From Phoronis australis (taxonomy: Eukaryota > Animalia > Phoronida), in the NCBI GenBank assembly GCA_002633005.1, contig NMRA01000285.1, positions 481,505 to 545,504 of the forward strand: a DNA stretch of 64,000 nt, read 5' to 3'. The translations under genes and the position numbers were made by a program. Shown here in pieces: positions 3,817 to 51,200 of this stretch. Under the pieces are notes generated by a model. That model made no database searches and had not been told where the DNA came from. It saw only the letters and a list, made by a program, of their open reading frames with translations. How positions within the stretch are numbered: the stretch's first letter is position 1; each line of letters starts with the position of its first letter.

Positions 3817-21323
<17,507 letters not shown>

Positions 21324-21619
21324 TACTCGCTTGTGTACAAACATATCCTGCCAGATAGCAACGTAATGCGAAACCGCATTGAAGATACCGATTGACTTAG
21401 AAAGATGGTACATGCCCGAAGACGTTTTGACTATGTTTTCCCCGGATTTCTCTTCTTTGTTCGATTTTTAAATTTCGTGTGTGTTCATGTTATCGTAATA
21501 ATGAAAAGCAGGGTGATGTCTACCGGCAAGTAGTAGCACAGGTCGTGGAGCACACTGAGTGCATGTGTAAACTGGGGTAGAGATTTATCTTACGCACAAA
21601 GATTAGCCTCTAGTGGTCN

Positions 21620-25572: not shown

Positions 25573-25718
25573 ATGGAAGGAGAGATTGAAACAAAAGGGC
25601 GAACTCGTCAGGCCTCGGCTGTTCAAAGTTGGGCAAAGATTTGGTTTAAGTTCAGCCAAGCGACGACGATTCACGGCATACGCTACATATTCGAGAAAAA
25701 GGCGTGGATAGTGAGAAG
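25573..25718 (+). CDS. DEG/ENaC exon 1 (HG gating motif)
   Basis: MEGEIETK...FSQATTIHGIRYIFEKKAWIVRR; in-frame TGA two codons upstream of the ATG. Confidence 0.88.
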
Positions 25719-28700
25719 GTAGTAACAACCGTTGATCTGTAAAACAGTTGTTGTTTTCTGTATCTGTCGCTTTTCCATTATTGAAAACGCGATCCTCGAA
25801 AAAGACGTACGAAGTTACGGAACCATTGGAGATTGTAAACAACTGTAAAAGGAAATGCACGCAACAATATGGGAGTCAAGTGTCAAAAATGCTTTAGTTT
25901 TCGATTTGGTTCACCCGTGAGGGTGGTAACTATTGGCGTGTACCAAGAGACAGTTCTGGACCCAACGCATCAGAAAACGGTTGGTACCTCAAATAATCGC
26001 TGTTTTTAATAAAAACATTCCATAGCTTTGGATTAGAATGAGTTTTTTTGAAACTTCCCAAACCACATTTATGTCGTGTTACAATCGAAATTAGCCTCGT
26101 TAAGTTTTAAACAAAATTAATTACTTAAGTACATTTACACCACTTTGTATGCCCAAAGCAGTAATGAGTCGCCGCTTAATGAGTCAGTAGAGCATTAAGC
26201 AATGGCATATACTTTTATTACGAGCACTTACGCGAATGTTTCTGGGGTTGGCTTTTTGTTGTAATTGATAAATATTTGATTAGAGTTTGGCGGAAGAGAA
26301 TGCGACTAGGAACATTGTTATGAGTTTCGTGTTGCCTAGGTTCGAAACGGAGAATATTAAGCTTATGAAGCATCATAGCTACCAACTTGTTGCCCTCAAA
26401 TTTCAAAAATTATGTGCACACCTACGGCGACGAGACGTTGAGCATCTAATCGCTCTCAACACGCGTTACATTTTAACTTCTTAAGCATGGGTTGAATCAC
26501 TATATTCTAGGTGCGAAAGAATGCCTGAAACATTGACAACATAGGTATGTTGCTAATGACCAGTGGACAAATTTTCTTGTGGAAACAAAGCTTACCTAAC
26601 GCAATAAGGAGATTCGTCAACTTCATTCTGTGAATTTCAAGGCATAGGGATTTCGTGCTATCCTTGGTACCGAATTCTTTTAAAAGGGGATAACAGCTAG
26701 CACAAGTTTTCCCAGTGTTTGTTTTATTGTAATATCCAGGGACACAGGCCATCTGCGTCGTATGCAAGTGCTCACAAAAATGACCAGGGGCATGTATACA
26801 TTGCCTTATACGTGCGACATCGCAACAGGCCAGATTCACTCTACCTTATAGTACGAGTCGTAATTCGGCATGCCGGGGCATTCAAACTTGCAAGCAAAAA
26901 GGGCTGATTTACACTGTACACGCATAAAATTAAGGATATTTGACCTCGATGAAGCTTTTTGTATAAAAAACAAATTCCTGGTGTTAAACATTTCTCCACA
27001 GACGTGTTTACCGTACACAGGCACAAAAAATCTTGTAATTCATTCAGGGCCACACTATCTTGTTGTCCTCAAGTCTAGACAAATTTTTATCGAGTTCATG
27101 ACAGTTATGTTGCCTTACATCAAAAGTTGGTTTTGACAGGGGCGTGAGTTCATTATTCTTTTAGCTGTTGGAAACAGCAAACCCCCTTAAAGAACATGAT
27201 CTTGGGCTGTAAAAATTGTCTTGTGAGGGTTTTTGGACAAGAAGTCGGTAGCAACAGGATTTAACACTCAAAATGTGGTCGAATCCTCCAAACTGCACTC
27301 TTCCTCACATTAACAAGACGACATCTCGGCAAAATGTTAGAAATTCTTACAATTTACTTGATGAAATGCCAGGTTTATACATAGGACGTGAAGACGTGTT
27401 AAACATTGCACAAGCAATCGCGACAGACAATAAATTTCTAAATAGTGTTCGAGTTAGCGTAAAGTGTTGACAATGCCAAACAATTAACATCGGATAGTCT
27501 TCTTTCCAAAGCGCAGTCCTTAACGGGCTGTCAGAAAATATTCGCAACTGACTCTTGACGTGCCACTCTCTAGTTCACCCACACATCAGAAAAACCACAC
27601 ATTAACGAGATGTTGCGGACAGAGCTTGCCAATTATGCATACATGTACATCTCCCAGTTTCACCCAGCGTGTAAAACATGACGTAAGCGTTCATAGTTCA
27701 ACTTTCATGCGACATATTTATAATTTCAAACCAGTAAATACTGCAGCTAACAAAAAATCTCAGACATACACATTCACCCAAAACCACAGTGCTTAGAGCA
27801 AGAACTATCGAAGCCTAGTGTCATTTTACAGTATTTTGCATGATGTTTTTCTACGCTCATAGACACAAATTATGGCACCGTAACATAATAATGCTGGTTG
27901 CACCATTATACCAAATAATTGAAGAGCACATGATGGCGGCGAGTAGCGACATCTGAGATATAACTTCCAAACACGTGATGCATCTTTATTTGCTTGACAA
28001 GAGAGAGTTTTCGTCGCTTTCGACCAAAACAATTTGTTTTTAATGAAAGTAGAAATATATCTGTTGTGAGATACAGTGTCAATTTGTTGCTTGTTAAAGT
28101 ACCATCTCTCCTAATACCTTGAAAACATCTACAATACAATTCTTTTTGTTTCTGTAAATTTACAACATACCCCACGAGTTACAATAAATTTTAAGGAAGC
28201 ACAAATCAATTTTATATGCATTGAAAAGGTCTTTGAGATATAAAACAAACTGGATGGTTACGGGTACCAATAGTTCAATTTCAGAATTATCTTAAACGAA
28301 TAATAATTTACATAGGTCTGTACAAAATTAATTTACATGTATGTGGGACTCGGTTGAATGCTTTTGAGAAGTCAACTAACGCAGGGTAAAAACTGGCATC
28401 CTTCTAGCTGACAGAAAATACTTAATCCATAGTCAGTGAAAGCAGGTCTCACAATGACTCGAGTAGAGCACCAGAACCAATTTTGGTTTTGGCCTAACAC
28501 CTTCCACTTACGAATGACGACTTCGCTGGGGTTTTTTCATACTGGATTCTATACATGTACACAGTGTCAGTTTCCGTCATGACATTAAATTTGACCGTTT
28601 TATTTTTGGGGTCTTGTGGCTGATTATCAAGTCCTTGGTCTTTGCACATCAATGTAGATGTCACCTTATTATATGTTGCAAGATCAGTGTTGGTTATTGT

Positions 28701-31700
28701 TTGTATACGCTATAATTAACACCACTAGAATATTCTCATAGTGACTATAATCTGAATTCCTTTCATTCTCATTCCCGAATCGCCTCAGTTGTTCATCTAT
28801 CAACTGCGGCTATGCATGCTCCTCTTGTTCTCCTTTAGTCGCTCTCTGTTCCTTACTTTTTATGTTCCCTCTTCTTTAGTCTCGGCCAACAGGCGCCACG
28901 TTCACGAAACAATACTAACTTCCGTTGTAGACTTCTCTGGGCAGTCGCTGTTGGTGCGGGAGTGTCGATTTTTCTTTATCAAGTCTCCGGCTGTCTTCAA
29001 AACTACCACGCCTGGCCGATGAGCGTGGACATTACGATCAACTACAATGATACCATCAAGTTTCCGGCTGTAACAATCTGCAACCAGAATGCCTTCAAGT
29101 AAGACAACTTTTTATATGTATCGCCATCCTATTCAACATCGTAACAAGCAATTCTACCCTTAAATTACCAATTTTCTGCAGTATATCAACTTCTTAATTA
29201 GAAAGTAACACCAGAGTGATAAACGGTTTGTCTATTATGAGCGACTTCATTAACACTCACGATGTTAAATGCTAATGAAGAAAGGGGTATATTTTCTTCT
29301 CTGAATAGTCCGAGAATAGAGCGCTGTTCCCACGATGTGACTGTACAGTCATTGGGCGGCGCACCATAGGGGGCTGGGGGGCTATAGTCCCCACTTTTTT
29401 CAGTGATGTGCCGCCCATGTAAGCTATATGCATTCGTATGCAGCCAGCAATATTGTTTCACCAACGACACCTAGTGAGTGTAGTGTTCTTCAACCTCAAT
29501 CATCTTTATAATACAAACAAAAGAAAGTAATTTTATTTTTGCTAGACTCACCAAGGTCCATGAACTGGGTTGGCATCAGATGATCCAGGACTTGTTCGAC
29601 AGTTCACGCGTGTTTTCTAATGTTGAAAAATACAAGGACCGCAACTTGACAACAGAGGAATTGTGGACTTGGGCAGCTCATGACAAGAGAGACTTGATAG
29701 TTGAGTGAGTTTTCGCGGGTGCCATTTCTCAACGCTTACCGAACCATTGGTTTTGCTTTAGGTACAAAGTTATGACAATTGGCACTCACGTAAGTGACGT
29801 TCTCCGGCCCCCTCCCGACGACCCCTCACAAAGTCTCTTTGACTAATTCATCACGCGTATATTTCTTGGAGGGCTTGGTCCTACCTGTAATCCGCCTACG
29901 AATCACAAACCACGACCTTGAGTAAGCCACGGAGACGTTTTCAATGTATAGAGTGGTTTTCTTCATTTCTGAACAGCCAACTAATCTCAATCTACTGTCG
30001 GAATATTAATTTCGAACTAATCGGGATGGCTTAATGTTACTTCATTATGTTATTGAGATGCCATGTTGCGACGTCGTTTCACAGCTATTTCTCAGTAGCA
30101 CTGGGATTGATTGTAAAATCATTGTTTGCTAGCAGCTTCAATAATAAATGTTCTTTGTTGGACTTCAGGTGTAAATGGCGCGGCGAAGATTGCAGTGCGG
30201 ACGACTTTGATTATATCATGACTGATCATGGAGTTTGCTTCTCCTTTAACTATAAGAACATCAGAAGTGGAAATGACGAGATAGTATCAGCAGGTTTGGA
30301 CAGTCTTTATAACAGGAATTTCTGAGAAAACTCAAACCTCCTTGACTTAACAGATATCCGATAGGAGTATGTACATGTGACTTGAAGAGGGCTCATAGCG
30401 GTGCCGAAATCGCCTAACCTCTCGCGTTTGAAGATCCGAATCGTTGATAATTTCCAAGGGAAGTGGACAATTATCCCTAGTTTTTGTTATTTTAAAGTTT
30501 TCGAAATTATAAAATACTGTAATATAACAAAACGACATATCAGGCTCTCAAAGTTGGTGAACTCGAGTTCGAGTAAAATAACATGCATAAAAACCGGCTT
30601 TTACGTTATGCATCGCACGTATCCTTAAAATAATAGCGGATCAGGTTTTTTCTCAATTCGAGAAATATTGCAAGCCAAATGCTTATGACCTCAGTTTCAA
30701 ATCGCTAAGCTAGAACTATTTGTTCGCTCATCGCCTTCCGACAATTGAACATCAATACTTGCTACCTGCTAGCGATGTTTGTCATCGCGAAACCTAGGCA
30801 AGAGGGAAACCCCCGGCTCTGAAACCGAGTGAGTGAGTTAGTAAATAAATAAAACGAATCGTGAAGTACTATTTTAAAGACTGTGGACATTGCGGGAGAA
30901 ACTGGATTCGAAAATGGACAGCGAACGCGCGGCAAGAAAATTTAAAACAAACAGCTACGAACCCTATCGGTGTTCGAGGTCAATAACATTTCAGCTTCCG
31001 CCTTCTTTAGCTTGGCCTTACTCTCTCCTTTTCCAGGGCCCTTGTACTTAATCTATTCTCCACCCAGATTCAGTTGCACTAACATAATTGCTATATCCAT
31101 GTAAAACATACGGTTATCAGTCGAGTCCAAAAGAATTAGGCTAACTGTGGTTACTATTAGGGAGGTTCACCACTCCAAAGGTTCATTACTCCGAAATTTC
31201 AATATTGTGAAAGTTTACACTTGTTGAACAGATTAGTGTTAATTTTCCCGGCATGATGGCCTGGCCGACATCGTCAATACCCGTTGTCAAAGCAATTGCA
31301 TTTTTAATGAAACGAGAAATGATACGAGTACAATGAAAGACTACATGTACATGTACATCATTCCACAAGCGACATTGGAAACAAATGACGAGATAAATGA
31401 AAAAAAGTTGTTACCGTAGCCATTGATGAATTTCAAACAGGAACAAAGCCTGGGGCACGGGGATATTTTGTATCAGGGTTGTGCTCAACCGTCGGCTTTA
31501 AATTTGAGGCGACTGCAGTGTATTTTGGGAAAGCTAAAAAATAGACACGCTTATTCAAAATAATCAAAACTTGGTGAAAACTCTAAAATCTTCCATCCTT
31601 TCTATTCATAACCAACTTAAAATTGTACACAAGAAAAGTTTCGTGAATTTCTTCTGTTTGCTAACATGGCAAATGTATAAAAACGAGCTGTTGTAACCAA

Positions 31701-34700
31701 CCAGTGCTTGTCATCAGAGCTAATTGGGATGGGCCAGGAATCAACAGTCGCTTAATTTTATCTGCAAATAGTTCCTCCGCGGCTGAATACGTTAAATAAA
31801 GTCGGAAAAAATGAGTGGCAATGAATGGCTTTACAAGATGTTAGGGGCAAATGCAACGCAAGTCGCCGCAATGACTACTATTCTGTTTGCTTTAAATTGT
31901 CGTGAATACAGTATCTCGTCTGTTTGCTTTAAAGTGTCGTAAATACAGTATCTCGTTGCCAGTTACTTGCAAATACAGCTACAGTATGGGAACGAACGTC
32001 ACAGTGATTCCTGTTAAGTTAGTTTCCGTTTCACGTTTGCTGCCGGCCTGGTCACAGGGGTACGCTACGCCCATACAAGAAACCCGCGAGATACTTGCGC
32101 AGAGAAATCATGGCTCATTGAACGGACATAACGATTTTGTTTACAGTTTACTCCCACAATTCCAGGCTCCGTTCATTTCCGTGGTGATTAAATTTGACTG
32201 TGTACTCCTAGTAAAGTAGTCCTGATCTTGGTTTTACATAACCTAGAGAGGCTGTTTTTGCAAGAACGGAGAATTAGTTATGACTACACGTTGATTTTGT
32301 TTGGATGCACATTGTTTTATATTGCCATCAGTTTGCATCCAAAGCACATTCCAGTGGTGGTTAGTTTTGATTTTGTACGTCACTAAGGTTGTCCTGGGCT
32401 TGGTTTTTTATGATCTGGAGCGATTTGGCTTTTGTCTAAAGAACTGAGACCTGATTACGGTTCCAGGTTCGCTTGCGCACCACTTTCGTGCCTATTAACA
32501 GTTTCTATATGTAAAGGTATTTTTGCACCTGACTTAGGAGCCAAATACGGACTTCGCCTCAAGCTAAACAGCGAACATTATGAATACATGGCAGGGCCGC
32601 AAACCACTTCCGGTGTGAAGCTTCTTGTCCACGATCAAGAAGAAATTCCAATGGTTCAAGACTTTGGTATTGCAGTTTCACCTGGCAAGCACGCGTTTAC
32701 GGCCATCAAACTGGTTCAGGTATGTCAACTATATTTAAACTGCGTTTTGCTCGTGTAGATTTCACGGAAAATTTGACGTTTTCTGTGTTGATAGACGTTG
32801 CTTCTAACATTACAGAGTATAAGTTTAAGTTCAAGCTGACTGCTTTTCATTTTATAATAGTAGATTTGGGGTGGGACTTTCTGGGCGAAGTTTCAGTCAT
32901 TGTTTTAGCAGTGTTATTTTAATAACATTAAATCATGGCTGAGGTCAGTGACTGCTGTAGCTTATTGTCGCATTTGTAGCTATCGTTGTTCTAGTTGCAG
33001 CATTGCTGTCATACATACATCTGTCTCATTTTTCCGATGGCTGGTCTTTGGAAGATCGACTGTGTATGTCAATATCTATGAGATTGTGTATTTAAAGAAA
33101 TATCTGTACTGACAACTACGTGTATGAGTTTTAAGTCAGTAAAATTAGATGTTCTTTAAAGTAGAAAACCTGCTATTAAGACTGTGTACACTTCCATATT
33201 TTTCTCCTGACCTTTTCCAAATCTTCTCATACGGATCATTCGCTAGTTGATTTAAGCTCGAGAGTACCGACTATTGATACATTTTTAATATCAGATTAAG
33301 AGAAATATCATTTAAAGTTAACACAAAACAACATGGCTCACATTCTCAAAAGTCAGTGTTTACGAATGTAATCTATCCGTGCTTGAGAAATCTTAGAAAC
33401 AGATGATAAATGATTAAATCCTTAGGTGTCAACAGGACGATTTAGTTATGCGAAAGAGCTGGAAACCCCGGGCTTCTACAATTAGTTTCAATATACGACC
33501 CACTGCAATTCATTATCATGGAAGATATATTTTTGATTTCTTCAAAGATGACGAATATTGGGCCCCCTCACGGCAAGTGTAAGAAAAACCAAAACCTGAA
33601 ATACTACGAGCAGTATTCTATCTCCGCCTGCTTAATCAACAGAGAGATGGAAGACATGATTAATAATACACAAGGGTGCCGCTATGCGTACATGGGTGAC
33701 GGAAAAGAGAAAGGTAGGCAATTTATATCCCATAACACGTCGTAATTTAATTACACATCTATTTCACTGTTCTGCGTTTGCCTGTTGTCTCTAAGGGGGC
33801 ATTCAAAACAACACAGCCGACTTGTGGTCTGTCATTTCCTTTTGATTTAAAATCGCGCGTTCATTATAAAAGTTTTGAATCATTAGAAGCATAGTGCAAA
33901 TTGGTATTAGTACTTTCGTGGTGGTAATTTAGATGTTGTAGCATGCAACGGCCTCAGAAGCTACAGTGTGTATGTCATTCATTTAGCAGTCTTGTAAGTA
34001 CAGAAAAGCAAATAACGATAGTCAACGTCATTCACACGACTGTCTTAAACATGGTTACTTGAAGATGTATACACCAGTGACCTAAAGTCGTGAATATAAG
34101 CATAAAAAGTGCCGATTGTCATACTACCCAATGTCCGTTAGCAACTGCTCATGTGATGTCATGGACATATATCAGCCTTCACAAATATACCTGTTTTGAC
34201 AATCTTAATCCTTGTTTGTCTCCGTAAGCAGAGTTTTGAAACGGTCGCTGATATCGGCGGCCATTTTGAATGAGACCCTAAAGTCGTGACCGTTTCGGTT
34301 AGACGGAAATACACGAAGTAAGACCTCACAAGTCAACTACAGTGCGTACAGTTACTCTAGATGACATAAAAATGCATTGCATTGTTTATTAATTCATTTG
34401 CAATTGAAATAAATTTTTATATGTTGTGCACTCAACTTTGATGTGCACAGACGTTTTCAATGAGGTTGTTCAAGTAAAACGCTAAGGACCCAGCATCAGT
34501 TATCTCTCTGTATTTTATTGCTTTGGCCTTACGAAACTTTATCGACCCTGGGACATTTTGATACATTGTTCAAGCTAGCCCTGGAGCTCGTGTTTGAGTA
34601 AATCTGAACAATGAATATTTTCGAAAAATATCCCAAAAATGCTAAAAAAGTGGATTAGTGAAATATGCTGTTTTGAAGATACATTTGAAAAAAGAAGCCA

Positions 34701-37700
34701 CTCACTCACTGTTTGTTATCATATTGTGAATACGAACACGTACGGGTATTCGTTTGACGTTCGTAAGCAGACGAACGCTGGAAACTTCAACGACAGATGT
34801 CGCAGGACCGCGCAGAAAAGGAAATAAGATCGTTCACGACTTTAGGGCACTCACGACTTTAGGGCCTCTGACGGTATATATTTCAATATGTCAATCTATA
34901 TTCATTACATTTTTCTTAATTTGACATGCACGTGCACGGAAAGCGAGATGTGTTACCTTTTTGTGATCAGAAGAATTCCTCTTGTCCGATGTTTTGCGCA
35001 ACGAGAATCTAACAGTTGTTTGATGTGTAGTTTTCACTTAATTGGTTTTATTGATTATCTCTCATTATTTTTACCGCTTTAAAAGTCATTAGTTTAGCTC
35101 TGCGACAATTACACGGTACTAATTTGCTGAAAGCTTATTGGCTTTCATGCTGATATTAAGGAGACTACTATTTTATGATAACGATCTTGCACAAATCCTC
35201 CCCTCACTCCATTTTTTACTTTAGTGCCCTAACATTCATATCCACTGTTCAAAGGACTTTCGTTTTGACCTATTCTTCACCCTTCAACCTAACATTCCGG
35301 TCACTCACAGAAGAGGTCATGCGAGAAGAAAAGCTCTGTTTGGTTTTGGCCTGTCAGAAACCTTTTTAATAAACTACAATAATAACGCTTCTGCAACAAA
35401 TGCATTTTACTAAACGACATAGACGTACCAAATATCTGACACGGATGCAGCTGGGGATGCCTTAACTCATTGGCTAAGTGTGTTGAAGATCATGTCCGAA
35501 GGACAGTTGAGGCCCTGGCTTTAGGTAAAGGTCCCCCGAATTGTTATTGGGAATTTGTATGTGTATTGCAAACTTAGCAGAAGCACAATAACTATTCGTC
35601 GATACATGTACATGTACATTGACTCATGTTTTTATCCGTAAGTTATCCCGGTGAATGTTCACTTTTTGAGATTGAAACACTCGACAACTGATATAATATC
35701 CCTGCCGCCTACCCTCGCCGCAATAGACGTTTCAGAAGTTACATCTCGACAGTTCAAAAATGAAAGGAAGTGAGCGAAATGGGATTTTTTATTCTGGAAC
35801 GTTTTCAAATAACATTTAGAATTTTTGATGGTTTGTTATAATACCTCCACATACGTCAGTTCTGAATGTGCGTCATAGCTATCTTCTGTACAAGTATATT
35901 GAAGTGTCGACTTCTGAATGGAAGACATTCAACAAAATTATAGCTCTCTAGTGAACTTTCGCCTCTTGGTTTACATATAGGCCGAAAAAGAGAACATTAA
36001 AATCGCTTAGGAAAATGTCGGTGTTTTTAAGTTTTGAGTGATTAGGGAAACCTTAAATTACAACAGGGGTTCGAGGTACTAAACCCTCAAATTAATGTTG
36101 TGGAAGTTTTTAAATAATGTGGTAGTGAGGAGCTACGAGATTTCGATCATCTGACGTTTTATCAGTGTGTGGTTATCCCCCCTTTGTATATTAGTCGCAC
36201 AGAGGCAGATGTGACTGGAGTGATCTGGTATAATTACAAAATCTTGGGATCCATTCCGGAAGTCAGTTTGTGTGCTACGGGCCATTCGATGCTCACTCTG
36301 AGACGATTATTCACTTTAAGTCCCTTTCGACTGGTGCTTCAAATAAATCGTCTCGTCACCAATAATTTTCCCCGGCACCACCTCCGTTTTCATGCAAATT
36401 GTATGCAAAACGCTACACACTATATTTACACTCTCAACTGAAAATTATTGGAGACAACTCACTCGACACAATTCTGGCGAACACGATCTCTTCTCTTTCA
36501 GCTCCAATTTGTCGACTGCCCAGCCTATTGAAATTGTGGGAGAAAGCAGCACACGCTGGTAAGATAGTTTTGAAACAGCTATTCATTTAACATAATGTCA
36601 CACGCCATGTCGACATTTTATTATTGCTTGTATTTGTGGGTTAACAGTACTATTATTGAAACTGGGAAGGAGTTCCCTGCCAAATAGGCCTTATTGGCAA
36701 ACATTACAGTTCAGGAGATAGATTTTGTTACATTTTTGTGAATGAATGCTAAATGTCTCAAGTACACTTTCTGTAACGACTACATCTCTGTAGGCTGGTG
36801 TCGTTCTAGGCCAGTTTCACGAAACTTGCAAATTTGCGTTGATTCGATTTTGTAATGATTGATCAAGAAAACTAACGTGCTTGGTACCTTTTCTACAACA
36901 AATCTTACAATTTTCATAATGCAGGCTTGCTTCTAATAACATTTGTTTCTTTCTAGTTAAAGAGGGGAACTTAAAGCCTAAGCACGACGCAGAATCCTGT
37001 CCTCTCCCGTGCCATCGCCATATTGTTGAGCCTCAAGTTAGCCTGGCACAAATGACGTCATATAGCAAGTTTGCGTTTAAACCAGGCATGGCCCAAAAGT
37101 ACCAGCGTGCGCGAGAACTGGCAATGCGTGTGAACGTAGAGCAAGTGAAGAAAGACAGAGAGTTCTTCAAGAAACTGGAAACGGGAATCAAGGAACTCGA
37201 AACGTCTTGTCACAGAATAAATGAAAACATTGAATATTTGGAGAAGGAAGTCGGTCAGCTTAATAATTCGTTGAGTACCATTTTAAGAGTTCATTCGAAA
37301 ATTCTTGAGGATATTTCGAAAAATGTCATTCACGTCGAATTATGCTGGGAACTGTTCATGAGCAAAGTCAAAAGTTCCCTTGAATACGAAAATGTCATTA
37401 CTTATGGTATGGTGTACACCCGAAGTAATTCTAATGATAATGGATTGAGTGACATTTTTTTAGAATCGGAAATAGATAGACAGTCTTCTATACTTGAAGA
37501 TCATTTGAGGTTGGTGAAAACTCTTAACAAATCATTTTCTCTACTGGAGTTCTATATTGCTATCTTACCATCGCGGTCTGGAAGCAACGAAGACCGGAAG
37601 TACATGAACATAATCATGAAGCCAAACGAAAACAAAGAAATCACGCGCTTTTCATCAGAATTACATCAACTCCTTTCTCGTTATACCGAAAACCTAAGAA

Positions 37701-40700
37701 CATTAGATCCACGCAGGTTTGAGCCAATCGACACCGAAAAGGCGCGAAAGGTTTTCGACGATATTGCCGGAAAACTCGATGTGCTTGCAATAACATCTGA
37801 AGAAAACTTTCTTCTACAAAAACAATACCTGATTGAAGAAAGGCAAAAAACTGAAAACTTACTAAAGAGACTTCATTATCAAGTTAATGAGACATGGAAA
37901 TCTCTCCAACAACCGAAGATGATTATCAAAAACCAGCGATTTGAAAGATGGTTCGCATTTACGACACAGGTTCAAGATTACTTAGATGATAGCAACAATG
38001 TGTCACGCTTGGATCTTGCAAACACGACGAATCATTTGTTTTCAGATGCTCAAAAGTTAAAGAGAAAAATGTCACGAGTGAAAACAAGTTCTTCACTAAT
38101 ACGAAGTGGTTTGTACGACCTCAAAGGACAGCTGGACACTATTGTCGATACCTTACACATGCAAGCTAGTGGACCACTTATCAACATTTACAAAACTATT
38201 GAGAATGGGCTGGTGACTAAGGAGGCAAATTCCACGAAGTTTATTATAGCGAGCACGTTGTTAAGTTCTGGGTGCGTCACTGAAATGCAACTTTCTCATG
38301 TGCTAAACAGCACACCAACGTTTAAGGAGATTCTCGACTTCAGTATATATGACTTAGCCAATTACCGCAACATATGGCAGGACGCCTTCAAGACTGAGTG
38401 GAAGCGGATTCGAAAACGTGCCAGAATTTCTGATCAAATTGAACATAAACATACGGAGTTTGTCCAGCTGTTTAAAGAGTTCCACAATGAAATGAAAAGC
38501 TTTCAGAAAGGCAATGCACTGGATGATTCTTTTATTCAGTAAGCTACTTCGTCAGGCCTTTGCGTCAAAACCCTTGTATTATACACTGCAACGTGCAAGA
38601 GGTGAAACCAAAAAAACACTCGATACAGGCTCCCGTTCAGTAACGCTAGGACCTCGCTAAAAAGCATGACTTCGCGAGATTACATGAAATTACGTGAGAT
38701 ATTGCCATGTATTTTAAATGAGAGCACGTGACTGATTAGATTTTAGCTAGGTCCTAGCGTAGGTCCTAGCGTCTACTGAACGCACGCCTGTTTCAGCAAC
38801 CGCAGGAAGCTTACTGTTACTGGACCAATTATCTTTTTGAAAATTTACTCTGTGTGTTGTCTCAGCCTGCGAAAGTTTGGAGCAAGTTTATTAACGCCAT
38901 GTTAAGTTTTCCAAATAACGTTATTAGTAACCCTTTAGTATGTGATTTCCCGTCAGCCACATGGGGCCCGTTTTGGCATCGGTCATTAGTAAGGTCTAGT
39001 CTAAGCCTAACCCATGGCATCCGTTTAGCCATGTTAGAAATTACTTTTAAAGTTTGTTAGCCAATGTCCGGAATACATGTTGTACAGGTAGAACGCAAAG
39101 AGACAGAAAAATGACCGGCCGAAACGCCGTGTCCCCGGCCGGAACGTCGTGCCGGGCACGACGTTCCGGCCGGTCATTTGTCTGGACCATTAGAAATGTT
39201 TCGCAAATTGCCTGAAAGAGACCAATAGATTTAAATGCGATTGCACAAAATCTGTAGCAAATTCTTTACTGATTGAAATATACAGAGCTGATTTTGTGCC
39301 TTTTAAAGGGCTGAGAATCCTAGGTAACACACTGAAAGCAGACAACACCATACACATTGTGAAAAGCCGAAAGTCGTATGTAGCCGAACCGCCCATTTGT
39401 ACATATGCAGGTTATCCCACATTCATAGGAATACTACTGCCATCGAGATTTGATTTCAACTGGGAATGTCCCAATAAGACCAGAGATGGAGTTGTGAAAT
39501 TTTATAAATTCACGGCGAATTGAATGGCCAGATTTACACATACATGAATACGACATAAATGGAATTGCTATTCAAGATACAGTTAATATAGTTCTTGTTA
39601 TAAGACATTGTATTTTGTTTCAGGAACAACATGATTCAAGTTGACGTCTATCTGCAGGATTTAAGCTACGAACATATTCAGCAGAGGAAGGCCTATGACA
39701 CGATTTCATTATTGGGTATAAAATTTTACTTTCTTTAACAAACTGTCGCTGAATTTGGTGTATGGTGCATAAAAGCTTTATGTATTTCCACTTAAATGCT
39801 GTCTGCAAGACATGTGACAAAATAAACAGTGGCGATACTAACTTACTGCAGTATAAGTAATACATGCAGTTGTTATAGAGGCAACGATGAGCGCCATGAT
39901 CCAGCATGCAGCACGTATTGTTGAACTTGCAAGAATTATGCGATGGGCGTAAACTGGTCGCATGGTTATAATTTACCAGGCGTATCATCGTTTTCCTTTG
40001 TTGCATCTTTGTTGGACATAACAGTGCAGGTAGCATGAATATCGTACTTTGGTCGTACACTTGAGGGTTAATCGTAAATGTTCCTTTATTGTAACTACGG
40101 GATCTACCGATTGCTATGCGACCAGCGCTTGCTACCAGGTTTCACGTGGGGATGGCATTTAGAACAGCTATGAAAAGAAACGTGGGCCTGCACAGAGCTT
40201 TACAACTAGAAAGTTCGATCTTAATAAATAACGGTTTAATGTTTTACATCAATTTAGGTCCCGGTTTTAGTACTTTGCAGATATTTAAAGATTTTTATTG
40301 TCCTTATACTACCCTTTTTCACAAACTCCCATACAGACATTTTGTCGTCACCTACCGGGATATTACAAAGTTATTTTAGTACCCGGCTGTTTGTACAACT
40401 CAGTTTCAACTAAAGGATTGAGGTTTGTTTATTTCCGCATTTTCTGCATAGATTCTATCATTTATACTGGAATGATATAAATCCGTTAAATTCCTATTAT
40501 CCACCAAATGTATTGAAATCCAAGCTCTTTCAGTTTGCTCACTGAATTCGGCCAAATTTGTATGGGATTGAATTGCAGAAGGTCAAAACCTATGCCCGTG
40601 TCTATCTGGAAGCTTTGTGTATCTGAACAAATATTATAGTTTGATGATCATCGATTTATAAAAGATAACACAATACAAAAATTTTGACTTTGTGCAATAG

Positions 40701-41377
40701 CCCAGTTCAGGTGCTCAATAATCCGAACTTGGAATGGAAGTCGGAAACGCTGACCGGTAATTAGACAACCTTTCTCGAAATGTCTCTTTGCTTAGCGTTT
40801 CTATATTAAAGCGTCAAACGAGGATATTCAAGCGAAATAATTATGTTAACAGTTTTGCGATAGTAAAACAATTTTATAATCTGTCAATGGAGTGTTATTT
40901 TCCGAATACTTATATGCTAATTCATGTCGGTGATCGCTGGAAATTCCACAATCAAATCATTTTTTTGTTTTTTTATTTCGATATCATATCGCAGGGATTG
41001 TTTACTGGTCTAGAAACGGCTGTTTCAGGTAACTGAATTGGTGTCACAATTCGCTTTAGGGAGTTTTGCCAAAAATGAAGAAAATGGAGTCTTTTAATAC
41101 AGCTACTTTGATATTATTTTGTTTAAATATATTTTCAGGTGACATTGGCGGATCTATGGGACTATTTGTCGGTGCATCTTGTCTGTCGTTGTTTGAAATA
41201 GTGGATGCAGCAATTCATCATTTTCTGGCAATTTTCCCAAACTGCAGAAAAAATTTCCGCGTACAGTTTTCCCTCATAAGACACCGAACTCGAAAGCGGA
41301 AAACTGGCCACTCCAACGTCCCAAGGAATGACGCACAAACTGCCTCAGATTTCGGAATTGCACAAACGGCTGTTTAA
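25573..41377 (+). CDS. DEG/ENaC/ASIC-family ion channel subunit, 971 aa, with a large extracellular insertion (spliced gene)
   Basis: Ten exons: 25573-25718, 28931-29098, 29546-29704, 30169-30293, 32538-32719, 33548-33713, 36502-36558, 36957-38538, 39624-39715, 41139-41377. They sum to 2916 nt in one open frame. Motifs: TTIHG, TM1, FPAVTICNQN, G-x-C-F-S-FN, C-x-x-PC, and GDIGGSMGLFVGAS in TM2. Confidence 0.93.
27830..28200 (-). mobile_element. Decayed LINE reverse-transcriptase fragment
   Basis: Broken frames with LQLFGIMVQPALLCYG and CRCFQGIRR resembling CR1/L2 RT segments. Confidence 0.4.
28931..29098 (+). CDS. DEG/ENaC exon 2 (TM1 and FPAVTICN)
   Basis: LLWAVAVGAGVSIFLYQVSGCLQNYHAWPMSVDITINYNDTIKFPAVTICNQNAF. 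Confidence 0.94.
29546..29704 (+). CDS. DEG/ENaC exon 3 (finger)
   Basis: LTKVHELGWHQMIQDLF...LWTWAAHDKRDLIV; phase 2-2 fits its neighbours. Confidence 0.85.
30169..30293 (+). CDS. DEG/ENaC exon 4
   Basis: CKWRGEDCSADDFDYIMTDHGVCFSFN. Confidence 0.93.
32538..32719 (+). CDS. DEG/ENaC exon 5
   Basis: AKYGLRLKLNSEHYEY...GVKLLVHDQEEIPMVQDFGIAVSPG. Confidence 0.94.
33548..33713 (+). CDS. DEG/ENaC exon 6 (thumb)
   Basis: MTNIGPPHGKC...YSISACLINREMEDMINNTQGCRYAYMG. Confidence 0.9.
34070..34877. mobile_element. Non-autonomous DNA transposon with repeated subterminal motif
   Basis: cctaaagtcgtga (34081, about 34277) is inverted as tcacgactttaggg twice near 34835-34864. Confidence 0.55.
36502..36558 (+). 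CDS. DEG/ENaC exon 7 (57-nt thumb exon)
   Basis: ttctctttcag|...|gtaaga, phase 1-1; encodes APICRLPSLLKLWEKAAHA and supplies the expected partner Cys. Confidence 0.8.
36957..38538 (+). CDS. DEG/ENaC exon 8 (1582 nt; end of thumb, beta10, helical insertion of about 490 aa)
   Basis: ttctag|TT AAA...ESCPLPCHRHIVEPQVSLAQ continues into the listed 496-aa ORF; ends DDSFI-CA|gtaagc in phase with exon 9. Confidence 0.9.
38632..38788. mobile_element. MITE-like element (family copy 2)
   Basis: Closely similar to 1825-1980. Confidence 0.7.
39104..39184. repeat. GC-rich palindrome
   Basis: ccggccggaacgtcgtgcc / ggcacgacgttccggccgg nested in aaatgaccggcc...ggccggtcattt. Confidence 0.7.
39624..39715 (+). 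CDS. DEG/ENaC exon 9 (beta11-beta12)
   Basis: NNMIQVDVYLQDLSYEHIQQRKAYDTISLL. Confidence 0.93.
41139..41377 (+). CDS. DEG/ENaC exon 10 (TM2, GAS filter, C-terminal tail)
   Basis: GDIGGSMGLFVGASCLSLFEIVD...GIAQTAV*. Confidence 0.94.
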
Positions 41378-42479: not shown

Positions 42480-43190
42480 TACAGTCATCCCCACCCGTCC
42501 GCCCGGCGTCCGGTGCTCTATCTCCAAAACCCTTTAACGTATGTTCATGAAACTGATTTTGCACGTGTTTCTTTCATGGATGGGACGGCATGAGCGAACT
42601 TTCGGACGGATCCGACTACCGATGTGCCGTCTAATGGCAATTTAAGTTTTTACGTTTACCTCTGTATCTTAATGGTCCTCACGGATTTTCATAAAATTTG
42701 GCATATGGGCATCTATGAGTGAGATGACGCTATCGTCCCGTTTTCGGATGGATTCGAGATTTTTGCAGCACCTAGTGGCCAATTTCATTGTTTTTCTAGT
42801 CTGTTGTTTGGCGTCCGCCCCTCTATCAACCAAACTGCTTTAAGGATGATTATAAAAATTTGAATATATGTTCTTACTATGAAGAGGACTGTTGACGACG
42901 ATTTTCCGAAGTCTTCGGTTACTGTGGCCCACCTAGTGACAGTTTTGTTTTGCGCTCATAGCTGTATCTCCTAAGCCCTCTGCAGGATCTTCATTAAATT
43001 TAGCAAGTGTATTTATATGAACAGACGACGACGACTTTCAGACGGATCTGACTATTGGTGTGCCTCTATTGGCAATTTTAGTTTTTTACGTTTACCGCTG
43101 TATCTTCAAACGCCCTAAACGGGTTTTCATTAAATTTGGTCATAGGCATCTTTAGGTGAAATGACGCTATCTTTCCGGTTTCGGATTTTT
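42480..43190. repeat. Diverged tandem or subrepeat element
   Basis: ttcggacggatccgactac...ggcaatttaagtttttacgtttacc at about 42600 recurs at about 43037, with shorter related units between. Confidence 0.6.
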
Positions 43191-44040
43191 TGGAACGAGT
43201 GGTTTCAAAAGGGTATACGATACGTATACGACTTAATTGACCCTGACAAAAGATATATTTATGATTATCATACCTTTTGTACACGTTTTCAATTTTGTCC
43301 TTGTATTACTCATTGTTATGGAATTCGAAGTTCAATACTTCGTTCTTGGAATCATCTAAGAGACAAGAGTACTACAGCCACTCCACTTTTCCAGAACATA
43401 TCTTTCGAATTTCCTCGGAAAATAAAGGGACGGGGAAAATCTATCAGTTATGCGATGATACTCAGTCTTGGAAAAAAGTTCTTTTTGTAATTTATCATTG
43501 TACTTCCGATGTCAGACTCAGATGGTGTCAATTCCTTATCAACCACAGACTTATTGGTACAAACTCTTATTTAAAGAAAATAGGTGTTAGTGAATCGTCT
43601 TTATGTTCTTTCTGTGAGCAACACGAAGAAACAATTTTACATTTGTATTGGGAATGTTCACTTGTTCAGAAGTTTTGGGGATGTTTCAAACCATGGATGA
43701 TAAATCAGTGGGATTTCCCTCTGCAGTTAAATATGCCAACCGCCTTGTTTGAAGATCCAGCCTGTAGATTAGAAGTTGTAAATTTAATTCTTTGATTAGC
43801 GAAATTTCACTTATAAAGGCAAAGATTGTAAAAGGCCAAGCCCAATTTTCACTCATTTTTACGTAAGGTATGTGATAACCACAATCTGGAAAAATTATTT
43901 ACAATTATAAATTTAATCCTGAGAGATTCCAGGCAAGGTGGTCTTTTTTGCTTAGCAACTAGCTAATTTGTTTGAAGCACTTGACTAGATTTAATATTGC
44001 TGTACAACTATGTACAAGTTGGTTGAATTAATAAATAATT
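43185..44040 (+). mobile_element. L1/Tx1-type LINE 3' fragment (ORF2 C-terminus, zf-RVT-like)
   Basis: WFQKGIRYVYDL...LRWCQFLINHRLIGTNSYLKKIG..SSLCSFCEQHEETILHLYWECSLVQKFW; frameshifted, 5'-truncated, AATAAA near 44031. Confidence 0.88.
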
Positions 44041-45281: not shown

Positions 45282-48200
45282 CTGAAAAACAAATAAATCA
45301 ATGTGTGAAGCCTCGAAAGCACTAAACGGTCGCTAAATCTTCTTCTTACCGCGTCAGGGGGAACGAGAGTCTTCATAGCAGCGGCGTTGCTGCGATTTTG
45401 TCTAGCTTCAGACTCTTTGGATTTGTGAAAATGTGACTAGTCGACACCTACTTTTTACCTGGTTTCTGGAGTGCGGAGAGTTTTGGGAGTCTGAATGCGC
45501 TGTCTTAGATAACTTCATGCAGTTATATACTTCCGGTAGTCGCTAAAGGTAAGAAAATGACTTGTAGATCTTCCGTTCGAGGCAAAACGCGTGTTGCTTT
45601 AAAGTCCTTATCTCAAAGGGCATTCTAGTTCAAAAACTTAAAAACATATACCAAATTAAGTAATATGTAACATGGCATAATGTTCACATACTTTCTGTTA
45701 TCAGACTAAAAGCCTTTTTAGCACAATTTAGTACCTCGGCCGAGATCGGGAAATCATCGACTTTTCCCGTTTATTTCCGTGACCTGAGTTCCTGTGTGTC
45801 AGTTCAGGAACGATTCCTGAATGCCAGCCATGTTGTCGTTGAAAACGTATTGACATCACCGTGAGCGTAAATGCGTTTTTACTTTGGTTGTTTTTATTTC
45901 CCATTTTTGGTCCTTTTTATACAAACTTGATTATTTGTTGTCTTAATTTTACCTGTTCTTTACACTATGACGAATGGTATTTAATGCAACATCATAAGTT
46001 TGTGAAGTACCTTTGCAAAGTCTCCGGCGTAGCCAACGCTCGGCTACTGAGGTCAGCCCTGACTCATCGCGAGGGTTCGTTAAATTAGCAACAGTACTCG
46101 TTTAGGTATTAAATCAGAGGAAAAAGTTTCTTGCTCAACAAATGTCTTATCTTTATCGCCATATCTTGAAATTGATGCGAAGTACCAGCCTAAAGTGAAC
46201 AACTGCCGTGTCAAGGTGACTACCCGGACGTTTGTGCGCAGTGCGTAATTGGCAGCAAATTGGCACCGGCTTTACTGGCCGTTTAAAATGTAAAATAGAA
46301 AAAAGGCATATTCATATGGCGATGTTTTGACAAACAAAAACAAGTTTTATCTCAAAACAGTGAGATCCACATCTGTGCTTGATTTTGCTACCAGGACACA
46401 GTAACCGGCGAAGTAATTCCCCGGCCTACAGTAGCCGTGACTGTTCGCCGGGAAAATAATCACTTGGTAAATTGGCTTTGACTGAAAACGGGAAGCTATT
46501 CACACACTGTGAAAACTCGCAAAACGGCGCAGAAAGCCTTCTTGGCGTGAAAATTTGTATTGAAGTGGAAGTTCTACCTTGTTCACCTTTCATGGCCAGT
46601 TCTACGGTGGCAGTTAGTTGCATGGTCTTGCTAAGTGAAAACGGGAGCTAAAGTCACTCATCGGTGAGGACTAATACCAAATTGACCTTACTTAAAACTA
46701 CTGTAGGAACCAACATTGGTTCCTAGCTTAAAATCGTTCATTTAATCGTTCACGATAACTCATAACTTGTCGCGATGCTGTCAACTCAGGCTTCTTTCAC
46801 AGTAAAACAGTTGTCAGTTTTTTACCTCCGGAAATCCACTTTCATATTGCGTTACTGGCGGTAACAACTGGTGGTGAATCCGGGGTGCGTCTATCGCCTC
46901 CTTTATGTTTTCACCAAACCAAAGAGCTCTCATGATCACCTAAGGAAGTGAAGATAAAGAGTATACTTTCTTGTTTACGTATTATCCCATTTTCCTGCAC
47001 AATTGTATATCTATACGAACAAAAAGAAGTATTTGTATTTAGTTACATGCCAAATAGTGCAGAACGTGATTTTTAAAGTTCGACCATGTTTGCCAAAGTT
47101 AAAATCTTGACAGATGTTGAATTGTGACCGAACAGCAACACACGTCATACTCTATGCGTACAGTACATGCGCCGTTTTTCAATTACACTTTCAGATATAG
47201 CCACAACCAAATAACTCTGACGCGAATTCTTGAGTCGCTGATGTTTTTGATGATTTTCTGGGCCCGGTCTCCAATCTTTTTACTTGAAATGGTACTCGAA
47301 ATTAGGTTTGGCATTTTCTGCTCAACTTTTGGGCGAACTCAAGATAAGTGTCTATTATTCTATGCTCGAGTACACAATAACTTACGTAGATAATTTATTG
47401 CCCTTAGTTCACAGTTTGTAAACCCAATATTAAAGCAATAAGTTCGAGTTTTAACTCGAAATTTCGAGTTTTTACTCGATTTTGTAGCACGAATACAAGG
47501 GTGTTCAAGGGCAAACTTGAATTAGAAACTCCTATGCATAAACTATAATGTATTCGAGCACAGTTTGATAACCAATTATCTTAAGTTCGCACAAAAGGAG
47601 CAGAGAAATTGCTAAAAATAGTTTCGAGTTCGTTTCGAGCACAAAGATTAGAGACCGTGCCCTGGTAACGGAAATAATATTCCGTCATTGTGATGAGACC
47701 GATTTCTTGAAAAATAGGCTTAAATGAATTTCTTTTTAGCCAGCTAAACAGAACGAAGTACACGCTCAAATAAAGGAACCAGAAGAGCAATGATGATGGT
47801 ACATTGCAAGTCAAGCTAGAGGTCAAGGTGGCTATCGCTGGCAAACAAAAACAGAAGAGAATTGTTTTTGAAACAATTACAAATCATCACTGTAAAAAAG
47901 AAACTTTATCTTTGCGCCCATGCGTATACTTACGTATGCTGTGGATGTTGTTATTTTCGATCCACCGGAAGCTCCCACGACTAACTGGACGTCACCATTT
48001 CCGTCAACAAATATAGTTGGGCAAATCGAAGAAAGGGGTCGCTTTCCTGGTTCAATGAAATTAGCAGGTGACGGATGAATCCCAAAGCCGTTAATAATAT
48101 TCGGAGAACAGAAATCGTCCATTTCGCAATTGAAAATAATACCCGTTCGTCGACCTTTTACCATTGACCCAAAACTAAAAACAAAACAATCATGAATCAC

Positions 48201-51200
48201 AAGCACGTTCCATCATTTGGGCCCAATTCGACGTTAAGCACAAATCACAAATTACAAATAACGTCTGCGCTAACCTGCGCAAAAGCAAAAACATCTGTTG
48301 GATTAATCCTATCAATTCTGTAACCACGTACAACCTTACTGCGTGTTTATTGTACTCGTAATAGAGACAGCATCTCCATTGGGTGCCATTATTGAGGCGT
48401 GCGCCGTGCCAGTCAACTCGCGGTCCAGAAAAGTTGGTCCATAGTACTCGAAAGTATGCGTCATGTTGTCCCATATCTTATTCCGTATTTCTTCTGCGTA
48501 AGCCTTACTGGTCAGGTTGGCAATTAGCTGTTAAACGTAAAAGAATAGTATTTTCACATTCAAATGACGACTATGAGCTGTTTAGTTTTAGTTTTAATAT
48601 TCCACTGAGGACAAAACACCGTAATGAATCAACAGGGTAGCGCGTGACTTTGTAGTGTCTTATTTCTAAACAATTTCGTTTTCCAATCGCATTTCCCAGG
48701 TTCCTTTCCAGGGCATATCAAGTTTTACAACTTTTGCTTTCTTCGATGCAAATATGTTTAACTTCAGGCAACTTAGATCATAAAAAATGTGAGTCGTCGG
48801 GTATAAAAATTGTGCGGAGGTTTGAAATATCCACCTTCCAGTATATATGTTTAAAACTAACATCACAGCGAATACAGTGTCGCAGTGTACTATGCCCTTG
48901 CTGTTTTTTCGTCTCTTTACAGGAACTTTATCACACTTGTATGCAATGAAATTACCTTTTCAGAAGTCAATCTCGTATACAACACTTATAGAATGTACGG
49001 CAGCGTCATTTGTTGCCTAGTCTTATGGAAGCTTCACCAATTTCGTGTTCCTCAAATCTAAATGCCAAAATCATGATTGTGTGTCCAATAACTGGGATTG
49101 CCTACTTTCGGGTCTCAACAACAATGCAAAGAAACTACTGGCAACCAGTTATAGGAAAACTTCACTAACCGCGCTGATGTCAACAAAGTTTTCGTCTCCC
49201 AAGTCTGTCCTTTTGGCGTACGCAAACTTGAAAGCCTCGATGATCCTATGGTACGTTAGAACAGGCTCTTTTAGCAACGAATCTGTCTTCATTTTATACC
49301 CTGGAAGTATTTGGTCGACGGAAAATGAAGTTGATTAGCACAGAAATCCAAACACGGCTCCGTAAGTGATGCGTTTATGGGAGTCCCTGAAGTCACCAGG
49401 AGAGGTAGTGAAAATAATTGAATGTACCAGTGAATATGCCAAGTATCCAATAACAACTGCTGCATGTGCAGCTACAGCAAAAGTAATAACATTCGGACGC
49501 AGCAACAATACTAACACTAACTGCAGTACGTGGTACAAAGACGGAGTCGTGCGATTTGCTTAATACGTTACCGTCATTGAAAAGCATTTGGGTCGCAAAC
49601 ATAGTTTGAAACAATTTTGTGTGGCTGAAATATTTCTAAAATATTAGGATCTTTCGACACAAGAGCATATTCAAGATCAAAGAAATAAATTGCGAATTCG
49701 TCAGCACACATGTAATTTTCTGCAATCACACACAGGTTGATTGTAAGAAGTGTATCTTACCATCTAAAATATTTAAGATCAACCCCAGCACGATTCCGCT
49801 TGCTGGTGGTCTCACCGAGTAGAGCTTTAATCCTCTAATATCGAACGTCATTGGTTCTTTTTCTAGAACCCTATAATTCTGCAGGTCTTCTATTGTTATT
49901 ATACCGTCTGAAATCAGGGAAACCAAAAACACGTGGGTGAGTGTAAACACAAAAACGAAAGGATCTTCCAAACACCTCGGTTCGAGAAACGTTTTTCTCA
50001 CATGACCTGGATGTGTTACGACACGACTGGTTAACACCGAGTATTTTTTGATAATACAAGGACGATTCACAAAGTAGTGCAAAGTAGAAATCCATACGCC
50101 TCACATTGTGTCGTCTGGAAAACTAAATCAACAAAACGCGCGCAACCAAGCAATGCCGGAATTCCGTGAAAGTGCAGGTTATGATTGACAAATCGGTTGA
50201 CGCAACTGCACGCAATCCCAGTCGGAAGGACATGCAAACAACTTCTTAAACGGACCCATCTCCGGCGGCGATTTCCATATCCACGTTCATTCAAACGGAG
50301 ACGATCTCGACTCAAGAAACGCTTTGAGACTGTCCAGCTGTGCTGTCTCAAGGTCAATTCAGTACTCGTGTGAGGTTAAGCCTTTCTCAGTGGCGGATCT
50401 AGGATATCACAAGGGGGGCCAACATTTTTTCTGTAAGCACTTGCGCAAACCACGATTGTAGATGCGCATAGCACCGAATGGGGGCCCCCCTCCCGCCCAG
50501 GAAATTTTTCTGTTTTTTCATCTAAAAATCAAGCATTTTTCTTGTTTCCTGAAGTATTATCCAAGATAAAAATTAGAACGTGTCAAACAGGAAGAAACTG
50601 CACCCACCGCAGACTCGAACTCACGACCCGCGCGTGCTTTACCACTACACCACCACGATTTAACTCGTAATCTGATTCTAAGAGACCTACTTGTTTATGG
50701 TCCACAGCGTTTGCGCGCGAAATCTACTTCTTTTCGTAATGCTTATTACACGTTTTGTATTTTGTGCACTCGGTTCGTAACAAATTTGCTGTATTTAAAA
50801 TAGTCTTCAAATGCCCAAAAGACCAAATCCGTTTTTCGTGTTGGCAATAATGACGAGATTGCTTTGGAAATCGTCTTAAGTTAAGGTTTAACAAAGAGAG
50901 AATTATGAGTTTCTGAGTGATTCACTAATTAAGGCTTGGATTAAATTCACATCTTACCAGCAGCTTGTGTTTTTTCATCGTCACTCAGGTTCCATTTTCT
51001 TTAAAAAATGAAGAAAATTTTCTTCCTTGCATAGTGGAGCAGACGACGGAAACGGAGTCGTAGTGCGCAGCGCCACTGCCGGTCGTCTGGGATATCGCGG
51101 GAGAGCCTATTATATAATTATATACTTAGCCATAGTTCCGTTACAACTGCGCCGTGTTCCGAATTTGACACTTGAAATTGGAGCTGAGCCCCCCACCCCA

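Follow-up and report, generated by a model that had tools for sequence, protein, structure and literature searches.

A DEG/ENaC channel subunit of Phoronis australis with a predicted helical domain of 493 residues in its knuckle

Gating of DEG/ENaC channels is interpreted through their compact extracellular domains. A tether that would make some of them force-sensitive has been elusive, its nature being given as unknown in the available text of PMC6955349. According to the accessible sections of PMC6827283, the knuckle consists of two closely linked helices, the three knuckles of a trimer come together on the extracellular side, and Trichoplax channels tolerate short insertions between the two helices. 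Here, we describe a DEG/ENaC gene of Phoronis australis, in which an insert of 493 amino acids (aa) stands in place of the short two-helix knuckle of ASIC. The gene lies within a 64,000-nucleotide (nt) stretch of animal genomic DNA (the window; contig NMRA01000285.1, 481,505 to 545,504, forward strand) with a guanine-plus-cytosine (GC) content of about 39%, and all positions are counted within this stretch.

The closest described channels, ASIC1, ASIC2 and BASIC (PF00858; PDB: 6ave, 7cfs, 6l6p, 9mkz), share with the Phoronis subunit the order of transmembrane segment 1 (TM1), palm, thumb, β11 and TM2, as well as the HG, GDIGG and GAS motifs. They possess two short knuckle helices and seven disulfides, whereas the Phoronis gene encodes 493 aa between β10 and β11 and could form five disulfides. 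In Trichoplax TadNaC channels, the site between the two knuckle helices likewise carries insertions, but the part of PMC6827283 at hand describes these as loops in modelled channels that are of ordinary size, in contrast to the helical domain of ~500 aa predicted for Phoronis. In FaNaC and WaNaC (PDB: 8on7, 7yvb), the knuckle helix α6 contributes to a ligand site at the trimer top, and α6 lines the FaNaC peptide pocket in the portion of PMC11026163 that was available; the known specific insertion of these channels, however, resides in the thumb, not in the knuckle. In vertebrate ENaC, a knuckle-attached tether can drive gating, with glycans on the knuckle tethering α-ENaC for shear sensing (PMC6955349, available text). 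That tether is a glycan on a small knuckle, and the extra domain of ENaC, GRIP, is situated in the finger.

The Phoronis gene is described by a ten-exon model on the plus strand (25573-41377), of which the 2,916 nt translate into 971 aa without an internal stop and the nine introns are all bounded by GT-AG. Exon 8 (36957..38538, 1,582 nt) encodes the end of the thumb (CPLPC, with C349 and C353), β10 and the entire knuckle insert (37052..38530, aa 367-859), which extends for 493 aa between QVSLAQ (β10) and FIQNN (β11). RNA reads cover this exon, and its splice phases are common to three related loci described below (L004, L005 and L006). A phase-1 AG acceptor and a phase-2 GT donor place it in frame with exon 7 (end 36558) and exon 9 (start 39624), which bears out the proposal of the first-pass annotation that a 1,582-nt exon is spliced in frame between β10 and β11 to yield a 971-aa subunit. 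The 496-aa open reading frame named there is stop-free as claimed, but runs from Met367 to an intronic stop, the true insert being 493 aa long. The frame of exon 8 contains no stop, as against 23-42 in each of the remaining five frames, and the chance of 527 stop-free codons is ~1e-15; skipping the exon in silico results in a frameshift and a stop 3 codons on. On a crude consensus, three of the 31 in-frame GT sites inside the exon reach 4 of 7, equal to some true donors, so the sequence alone is compatible with an internal donor in exon 8.

The insert is rich in Leu, Ile, Glu and Lys and poor in Pro (1.6%) and Gly (2.6%), a composition count that agrees with the initial description. The best window of the heptad pattern quoted in that description scores 0.88, a value reached by none of 200 shuffles. 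Heptad windows make up 29% of exon 8 (aa 390-457, 693-740 and 823-856), so that the coiled coil of ~490 aa suggested at first contracts to these stretches; the remainder of the exon reads as amphipathic helix, and the helical moment of the insert is 0.31, compared with 0.22 ± 0.016 in shuffles. The seven sequons listed earlier are all present, although shuffles give a mean of 4.8 (P=0.18) and their number thus carries no signal beyond composition. No internal duplication was detected by self-BLAST. Searches with exon 8 as a single sequence returned nothing from the word index (longer and near lengths), no phmmer match among 1.84 billion representatives, no usable match in the ESM Atlas and, from Pfam, seven weak matches of coiled-coil type, every one below cut-off; such single-sequence blanks do not show that the insert is unique. 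A transposon or viral origin, a possibility raised in the initial description, found no counterpart, in that neither Pfam, PHROGs (0/7) nor viral models gave a viral, phage or mobile-element match to the insert, a result compatible with a remote origin, and a profile of the family described next found no relative in viral and prokaryote genome contigs.

The insert is shared by further channels. A short-motif search of supplement 11 of PMC10507113 returned a Lingula entry in which the thumb cysteines lead straight into a similar long helix, and at least five entries of this supplement share F[IV]RGW..[IM].ERT, two from Lingula (comp141642, comp140230) and three from Platynereis (comp401362, comp418513, Contig1928). 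A degenerate DNA pattern of the motif occurs at six metagenome loci, five of which (L002-L006) encode the same long exon; these come from two assembly prefixes (L002, L005 and L006; L003 and L004) and are not five independent organisms. The family profile search added the protein P0002 and, because only two proteins were found among 7,997 candidates, the searched protein collection is poor in such animal proteins. In L004, L005 and L006, which extend to the exon end, the phase-2 donor aligns with that of Phoronis, L003 runs off its contig, and a phase-1 acceptor is found in L002, L004, L005 and L006 within a few codons of the Phoronis position. The length after the last thumb cysteine is likewise similar (508-545 residues in four sequences), and the first heptad helix occupies the same position in seven of seven aligned sequences. 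The unnamed tower-bearing family, as we refer to it in anticipation of the structure proposed below, and the Phoronis copy are therefore alike in insert site, length, exon phases, heptad positions and the first and last thirds of the insert.

Homology was assessed with a profile of five near-complete homologues from which the Phoronis gene was left out, with 200 shuffles and the reversed sequence as controls. Exon 8 scores 47.1 bits against this profile (best of 200 shuffles, 6.8). Exon residues 30-526 and 114-526 reach 36.1 and 9.4 bits, scores that neither the reversed sequence nor any of the 200 shuffles attains, while residues 331-526 alone reach 12.6 bits (best shuffle 6.5, reversed 1.0). 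As the profile scores exceed all shuffles outside residues 114-330, these comparisons indicate that the insert is inherited, with homology detectable in its first and last thirds. The notion of a one-off novelty is thereby overturned, the insert being common to five loci, P0002 and the Lingula and Platynereis entries.

In the literature, a description of a knuckle domain of several hundred residues was absent from the full texts searched, which were mostly open-access. The insert passes without comment in the available parts of PMC10507113, PMC11026163, PMC6197857, PMC9949801, PMC9234716, PMC6827283, PMC6955349 and bioRxiv 2023.02.01.526556; the earlier reservation that a characterised subfamily might already carry this domain thus led to a family, but to no description of it. 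The tower architecture appears to be an undescribed, inherited family trait. The accessible text of PMC10507113 mentions uncharacterised groups of clade A, with annelid and brachiopod members, near BASIC. In one alignment file that lists the family entries the motif is absent as an unbroken string, which suggests that trimming hides the insert there.

Several search results stand apart from the family. L001, the sixth locus, has a GC content of 0.61 and shows no similarity, and was set aside as matching the motif by chance. At L002:1521-2339 (minus strand), the family exon is 85% identical to L005 and its frame ends after ~270 codons, which may reflect a pseudogene, an allele or an assembly error. 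An Atlas search with P0001 gave low-scoring clusters (0.75-0.76), two of the three shown having PF00858 members, and none of five motifs was present in the supplements of PMC9949801.

Structure prediction from the single sequence was uninformative, with a predicted local distance difference test (pLDDT) of 41.5 and no Foldseek match to the model. With an alignment of seven sequences, AlphaFold reached a mean pLDDT of 54 and a predicted template modelling score of 0.43, and 177 of 526 residues lie at pLDDT 70-90. The confident stretches are exon residues ~50-110, 290-400 and 470-520, and values below 50 are found over 121-286 and 404-465. The first long heptad helix (aa 395-457, 37136..37324, plus strand; heptad score 0.88, pLDDT mostly 70-82) is homologous to the family (hhalign probability 94.9) and is predicted to form an ascending stalk. 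A predicted middle helical hairpin (aa 622-738, 37817..38167, plus strand; pLDDT 67-84) contains the second heptad stretch (0.82) and shows family similarity above shuffles. The last helix (aa 801-853, 38354..38512, plus strand; pLDDT mostly 68-85, heptad score 0.65), which also aligns with the family, is predicted to descend to β11. VIA-align matched helical bundles across model residues ~61-515, with a best Z of 10.0, whereas Foldseek with the alignment-based model gave no match at E<=0.001 among PDB and viral models, and a sequence search of the PDB with the family profile gave weak heptad matches only (E>=0.085). Since the first helix leaves after β10 and the last ends before β11, the simplest reading of the model is that its confident part resembles an up-and-down helical bundle within one subunit, ordered up-down-up-down. 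The idea that three inserts form a long helical stalk is accordingly retained as regards a long helical structure at the top of the channel, but the model fits a bundle within one subunit better than a stalk shared by three.

The channel core surrounding the insert is that of a DEG/ENaC subunit. Exon 1 (25573..25718) provides the start codon, the cytoplasmic N-terminus and the HG motif (TTIHG), read from the sequence and gene model and without a Pfam match on its own. Exon 2 (28931..29098) encodes TM1 and β1-β2 (FPAVTICN; PF00858 E 1.6e-14, top PDB match ASIC5/BASIC), exon 3 (29546..29704), an in-frame AG/GT exon of the model, the finger region, exon 4 (30169..30293) the β-ball and palm with C159, C166 and C181 (PF00858 E 8.1e-8, ASIC1 E 3.5e-5), and exon 5 (32538..32719) palm and β-ball strands (PF00858 E 1.5e-9 and PDB search). 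The thumb follows in exon 6 (33548..33713; PF00858 E 2.5e-4), with C271, C288 and C304 but without two of the cysteines of ASIC1, and in exon 7 (36502..36558, 57 nt), with C319 and without the second family cysteine of that stretch; exon 7 rests on the gene model and a read depth equal to two reads. Downstream of exon 8, exon 9 (39624..39715) spans β11-β12 up to the start of TM2, as judged from the gene model, identity to L004 and L005, and read depth. Exon 10 (41139..41377) holds TM2 (GDIGG...GAS), the C-terminal tail and the stop (PF00858 E 1.1e-5, ASIC1 E 8.5e-5, sense reads). All ten exons lie on the plus strand. PF00858 is thus matched by five exon frames (E 1.6e-14 to 2.5e-4), four of them over the curated cut-off, and, in PDB searches, each of five core exons was matched best by ASIC1, ASIC2 or BASIC. 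The HG motif, TM1, GDIGG and the GAS belt are intact, and the TM2 region reads GDIGGSMGLFVGAS.

FaNaC ranks under ASIC and BASIC, or is unlisted, in each of the five exon searches of the PDB, so, by PDB match, the closest affinity of the sequence is not to FaNaC/WaNaC. In ASIC, proton gating involves a critical His73 after TM1 and Lys211 in the palm, as given in the available part of PMC10507113. No counterpart of H73 is apparent in the exon 2 stretch, which is BASIC-like as judged from the PDB match of the exon and not from a residue alignment to ASIC1 (BASIC E 4.4e-8, ASIC2 E 0.047, ASIC1 absent from the 11 matches).

Ten extracellular cysteines match the superfamily (C99, C159, C166, C181, C271, C288, C304, C319, C349 and C353), six of them in the thumb. 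Two cysteines of ASIC1 are substituted in the alignment to ASIC1 6ave. Relative to the family sequences, two more are absent. From the pattern of the ASIC1 structure, we take the four missing thumb cysteines to be partners, i.e., two disulfide pairs. Judged by these residues, five of the seven extracellular disulfides that are conserved in DEG/ENaC channels (PMC6197857, available text) could form, and the full set of seven is not present. The shortfall would be a derived loss and not a sign of non-membership in DEG/ENaC, and such a paired loss of cysteines points to a folded protein under selection rather than to decay. Taken by its sequence, the gene encodes an intact, ASIC/BASIC-like DEG/ENaC subunit of 971 aa.

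Compared to its relatives, the Phoronis copy is divergent in the insert and conserved in the pore. Exon 8 is 15-18% identical to the family exons, which are 24-51% identical among the five near-complete ones, whereas exons 9 and 10 share 52-63% identity with L004 and L005, which share 65% with each other. The difference is most prominent over exon residues 121-286, which within the family are the best-conserved part of the insert (mean identity 35.5%, 22 invariant columns) and in Phoronis the least similar (13.8% identity). Here, 2 of the 22 invariant columns are kept, 2 of 17 when the five columns within the search motif are set aside, and in a leave-one-out comparison an omitted homologue keeps 22 of 22-35 columns, the Phoronis gene 2-4; as the alignment is at noise level over residues 121-286, the Phoronis counts are lower bounds. 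The head signature (F[IV]RG..ER, A.N, RYD, Y..Y.F...RI) is missing from the Phoronis copy, including the family's F[IV]RGW..ERT and RYD, and so are the family sequons at columns 175 (5/6 homologues) and 208 (6/6). The corresponding segment (aa 456-621, 37319..37816, plus strand; noise-level similarity, pLDDT <50) is referred to as the eroded head. From the retention of stalk and pore alongside the loss of the head signature, of both conserved sequons and of two thumb disulfides, we infer a divergent, re-tuned paralogue.

Transcription was examined in RNA data of the same species label, comprising a contig set and three runs of raw reads, about one fifth of each run being covered. Splice junctions were reported only from at least 3 reads. 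Reads occur in nine of ten exon 8 bins in at least one of the three runs, at a depth of 0.1-1.9x, all in the orientation of the exon 10 reads and none in the opposite one. These sense reads show low-level transcription over the length of exon 8. The two intron-7 bins are free of reads in the three runs. Depth is 0.69 in the bin with the 57-nt exon 7 and 1.13 in the bin with the 92-nt exon 9, where 0.68 and 1.10, respectively, are expected from two reads confined to the exon. The depths thus fit junctions 36558/36957 and 38538/39624, although neither was reported at the threshold, and the reads spread along the exon interior speak against transcripts that skip most of exon 8, a concern voiced in the first-pass annotation.

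Other RNA signals occur within the gene. Between 27032 and 29207 (intron 1 and exon 2), reads run opposite to the channel exons, at up to 4.9x (X1) and 2.6x (X2), and possibly represent an antisense transcript. In intron 9 (39957-40123), sense-only reads at 1.1-2.8x in all three runs may stem from a short repeat transcribed elsewhere or from an unmodelled small exon. Intron 8 harbours a short repeat with inverted parts (38626-38790), a related copy of which lies at 1824-1980; RNA reads that contain it number in the hundreds, come from both strands and continue at their ends into other sequence.

We postulate that the 493-aa insert forms a helical tower atop the channel. The first long helix would leave past β10, the last would return to β11, and the middle hairpin would pack with both, while aa 456-621 and 739-800 would constitute a head at the far end. 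Three such towers would stand round the three-fold axis, where the knuckles meet. As each tower is continuous with palm strands at both of its ends, its movement would be transmitted to the gate. The tower may therefore serve as a sensor arm: its head would bind an outside partner, and its stalk would move palm and pore, passing on a pull or a binding event in a manner re-tuned in the Phoronis copy. We put the probability of this explanation at roughly 45%. As to the partner, capture of an extracellular macromolecule or a matrix tether, with force supplied by a filament, is put slightly ahead of a soluble ligand.

A broader, and doubtful, proposition is that spiralian animals hold DEG/ENaC channels of an undescribed class, in which a built-in antenna, namely a helical tower of ~500 residues per subunit that is wired to the palm, captures a matrix, mucus or cell-surface partner through its head and gates the pore. 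If true, the Phoronis gene would show a head that evolves as a module of specificity, exchangeable on a stalk that stays conserved, and such a DEG/ENaC channel would encode its own extracellular tether, so that deletions and swaps of the head could put the long-debated tether model directly to the test. A conserved apical helical domain that doubles the subunit would be a deletable and swappable candidate sensor; members are already contained in published datasets, and the Phoronis copy provides a natural contrast, with stalk and pore kept and head and thumb changed.

Several observations weigh against the sensor arm. The model is moderate, with 269 of 526 residues under pLDDT 50, its topology was deduced from secondary structure and from the ranges of the structural matches, not from coordinates, and the VIA-align Z of 10.0 falls within the range of generic helical bundles. 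No splice junction with at least 3 reads was found in the three runs at ~1x depth. Exon residues 114-330 score 1.1 bits against the family profile, as high as which 19 of 200 shuffles come, and on account of this shuffle-level score a head that was eroded would look the same in sequence as one that was replaced. A glycan tether in the Phoronis copy is likewise weakened by a sequon count at chance and the absence of the two family sequons.

Of the competing explanations, the best survivor, though a rather unlikely one, makes the Phoronis copy an accessory subunit, the stalk of which fits into heterotrimers with canonical tower paralogues that do the sensing, so that it tunes their currents. The loss of head signature and two thumb disulfides with stalk and pore kept would suit such a role. 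Moreover, paralogues co-occur (L002, L005 and L006 under one prefix, L003 and L004 under another), and heteromers are common in the superfamily according to the accessible part of PMC10507113. The 64-kb window, however, contains no paralogue, and a sensing surface would be just as likely to diverge after its ligand had changed.

It is unlikely that the tower is purely structural, a spacer, lid or adhesion scaffold on a leak channel or on one modulated by protons or calcium in the manner of BASIC. The many invariant polar and aromatic residues of the family head exceed what a spacer needs, and both insert ends join palm strands; the TM1 exon is nevertheless nearest to ASIC5/BASIC, Pfam, Foldseek and VIA-align gave no recognisable binding domain, and the uniform length of the insert in the family (508-545) is what a spacer requires.

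A further rival concerns geometry and can coexist with the sensor arm as well as with an accessory subunit or a structural tower. Here, the three first heptad helices would form one central trimeric coiled coil, a stalk between subunits, as might be expected from about six unbroken heptads in aa 395-457, placed identically in seven of seven sequences, and from knuckles that meet at the trimer top (PMC6827283, available text). We regard this as improbable: in the monomer model, confidence rises in four helices together, and the bundle matches extend across all of them, which suggests that the heptad faces are buried within one subunit. A trimer prediction of exon residues 30-135, made without an alignment, gave a score of 0.25 and a mark of 0.32, values that speak neither for nor against such a coil.

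That the gene is decaying or its long exon mis-modelled, with no tower protein made, could draw on low expression without a listed junction, the 15-18% identity and the donor-like internal GT sites, but is highly improbable in view of 971 codons without stop or frameshift, intact pore motifs, cysteines lost in pairs, exons 9 and 10 nearly as similar to the relatives as these are to each other, reads along the exon interior and relatives that use the same exon ends.

The channel gene is flanked by an inverted pair of related genes at 11336-18369 (plus strand) and 46803-58369 (minus strand), which share blastn blocks of 79-94% identity. Two frames of the minus-strand copy match gamma-glutamyltranspeptidase (PF01019), and the identity of the plus-strand copy is deduced from blastn. 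Within the span of the minus-strand gene, a THAP-domain frame (PF05485; 54615-55256, minus strand) is enclosed by inverted repeats (54061-54246 and 55312-55492, 84%), and the segment 54061-55492 is likely a DNA transposon remnant. A zf-RVT fragment (PF13966) at 43146-43795 (plus strand) represents the end of a retroelement of the long interspersed nuclear element type. Upstream of the channel gene, a 1.4-kb segment is directly duplicated (20218-21618 and 22631-24038, 94.8% identity). The duplication includes inverted repeats, a single N occupies position 21619, and the pair could represent either an uncollapsed haplotype or a tandem repeat element.

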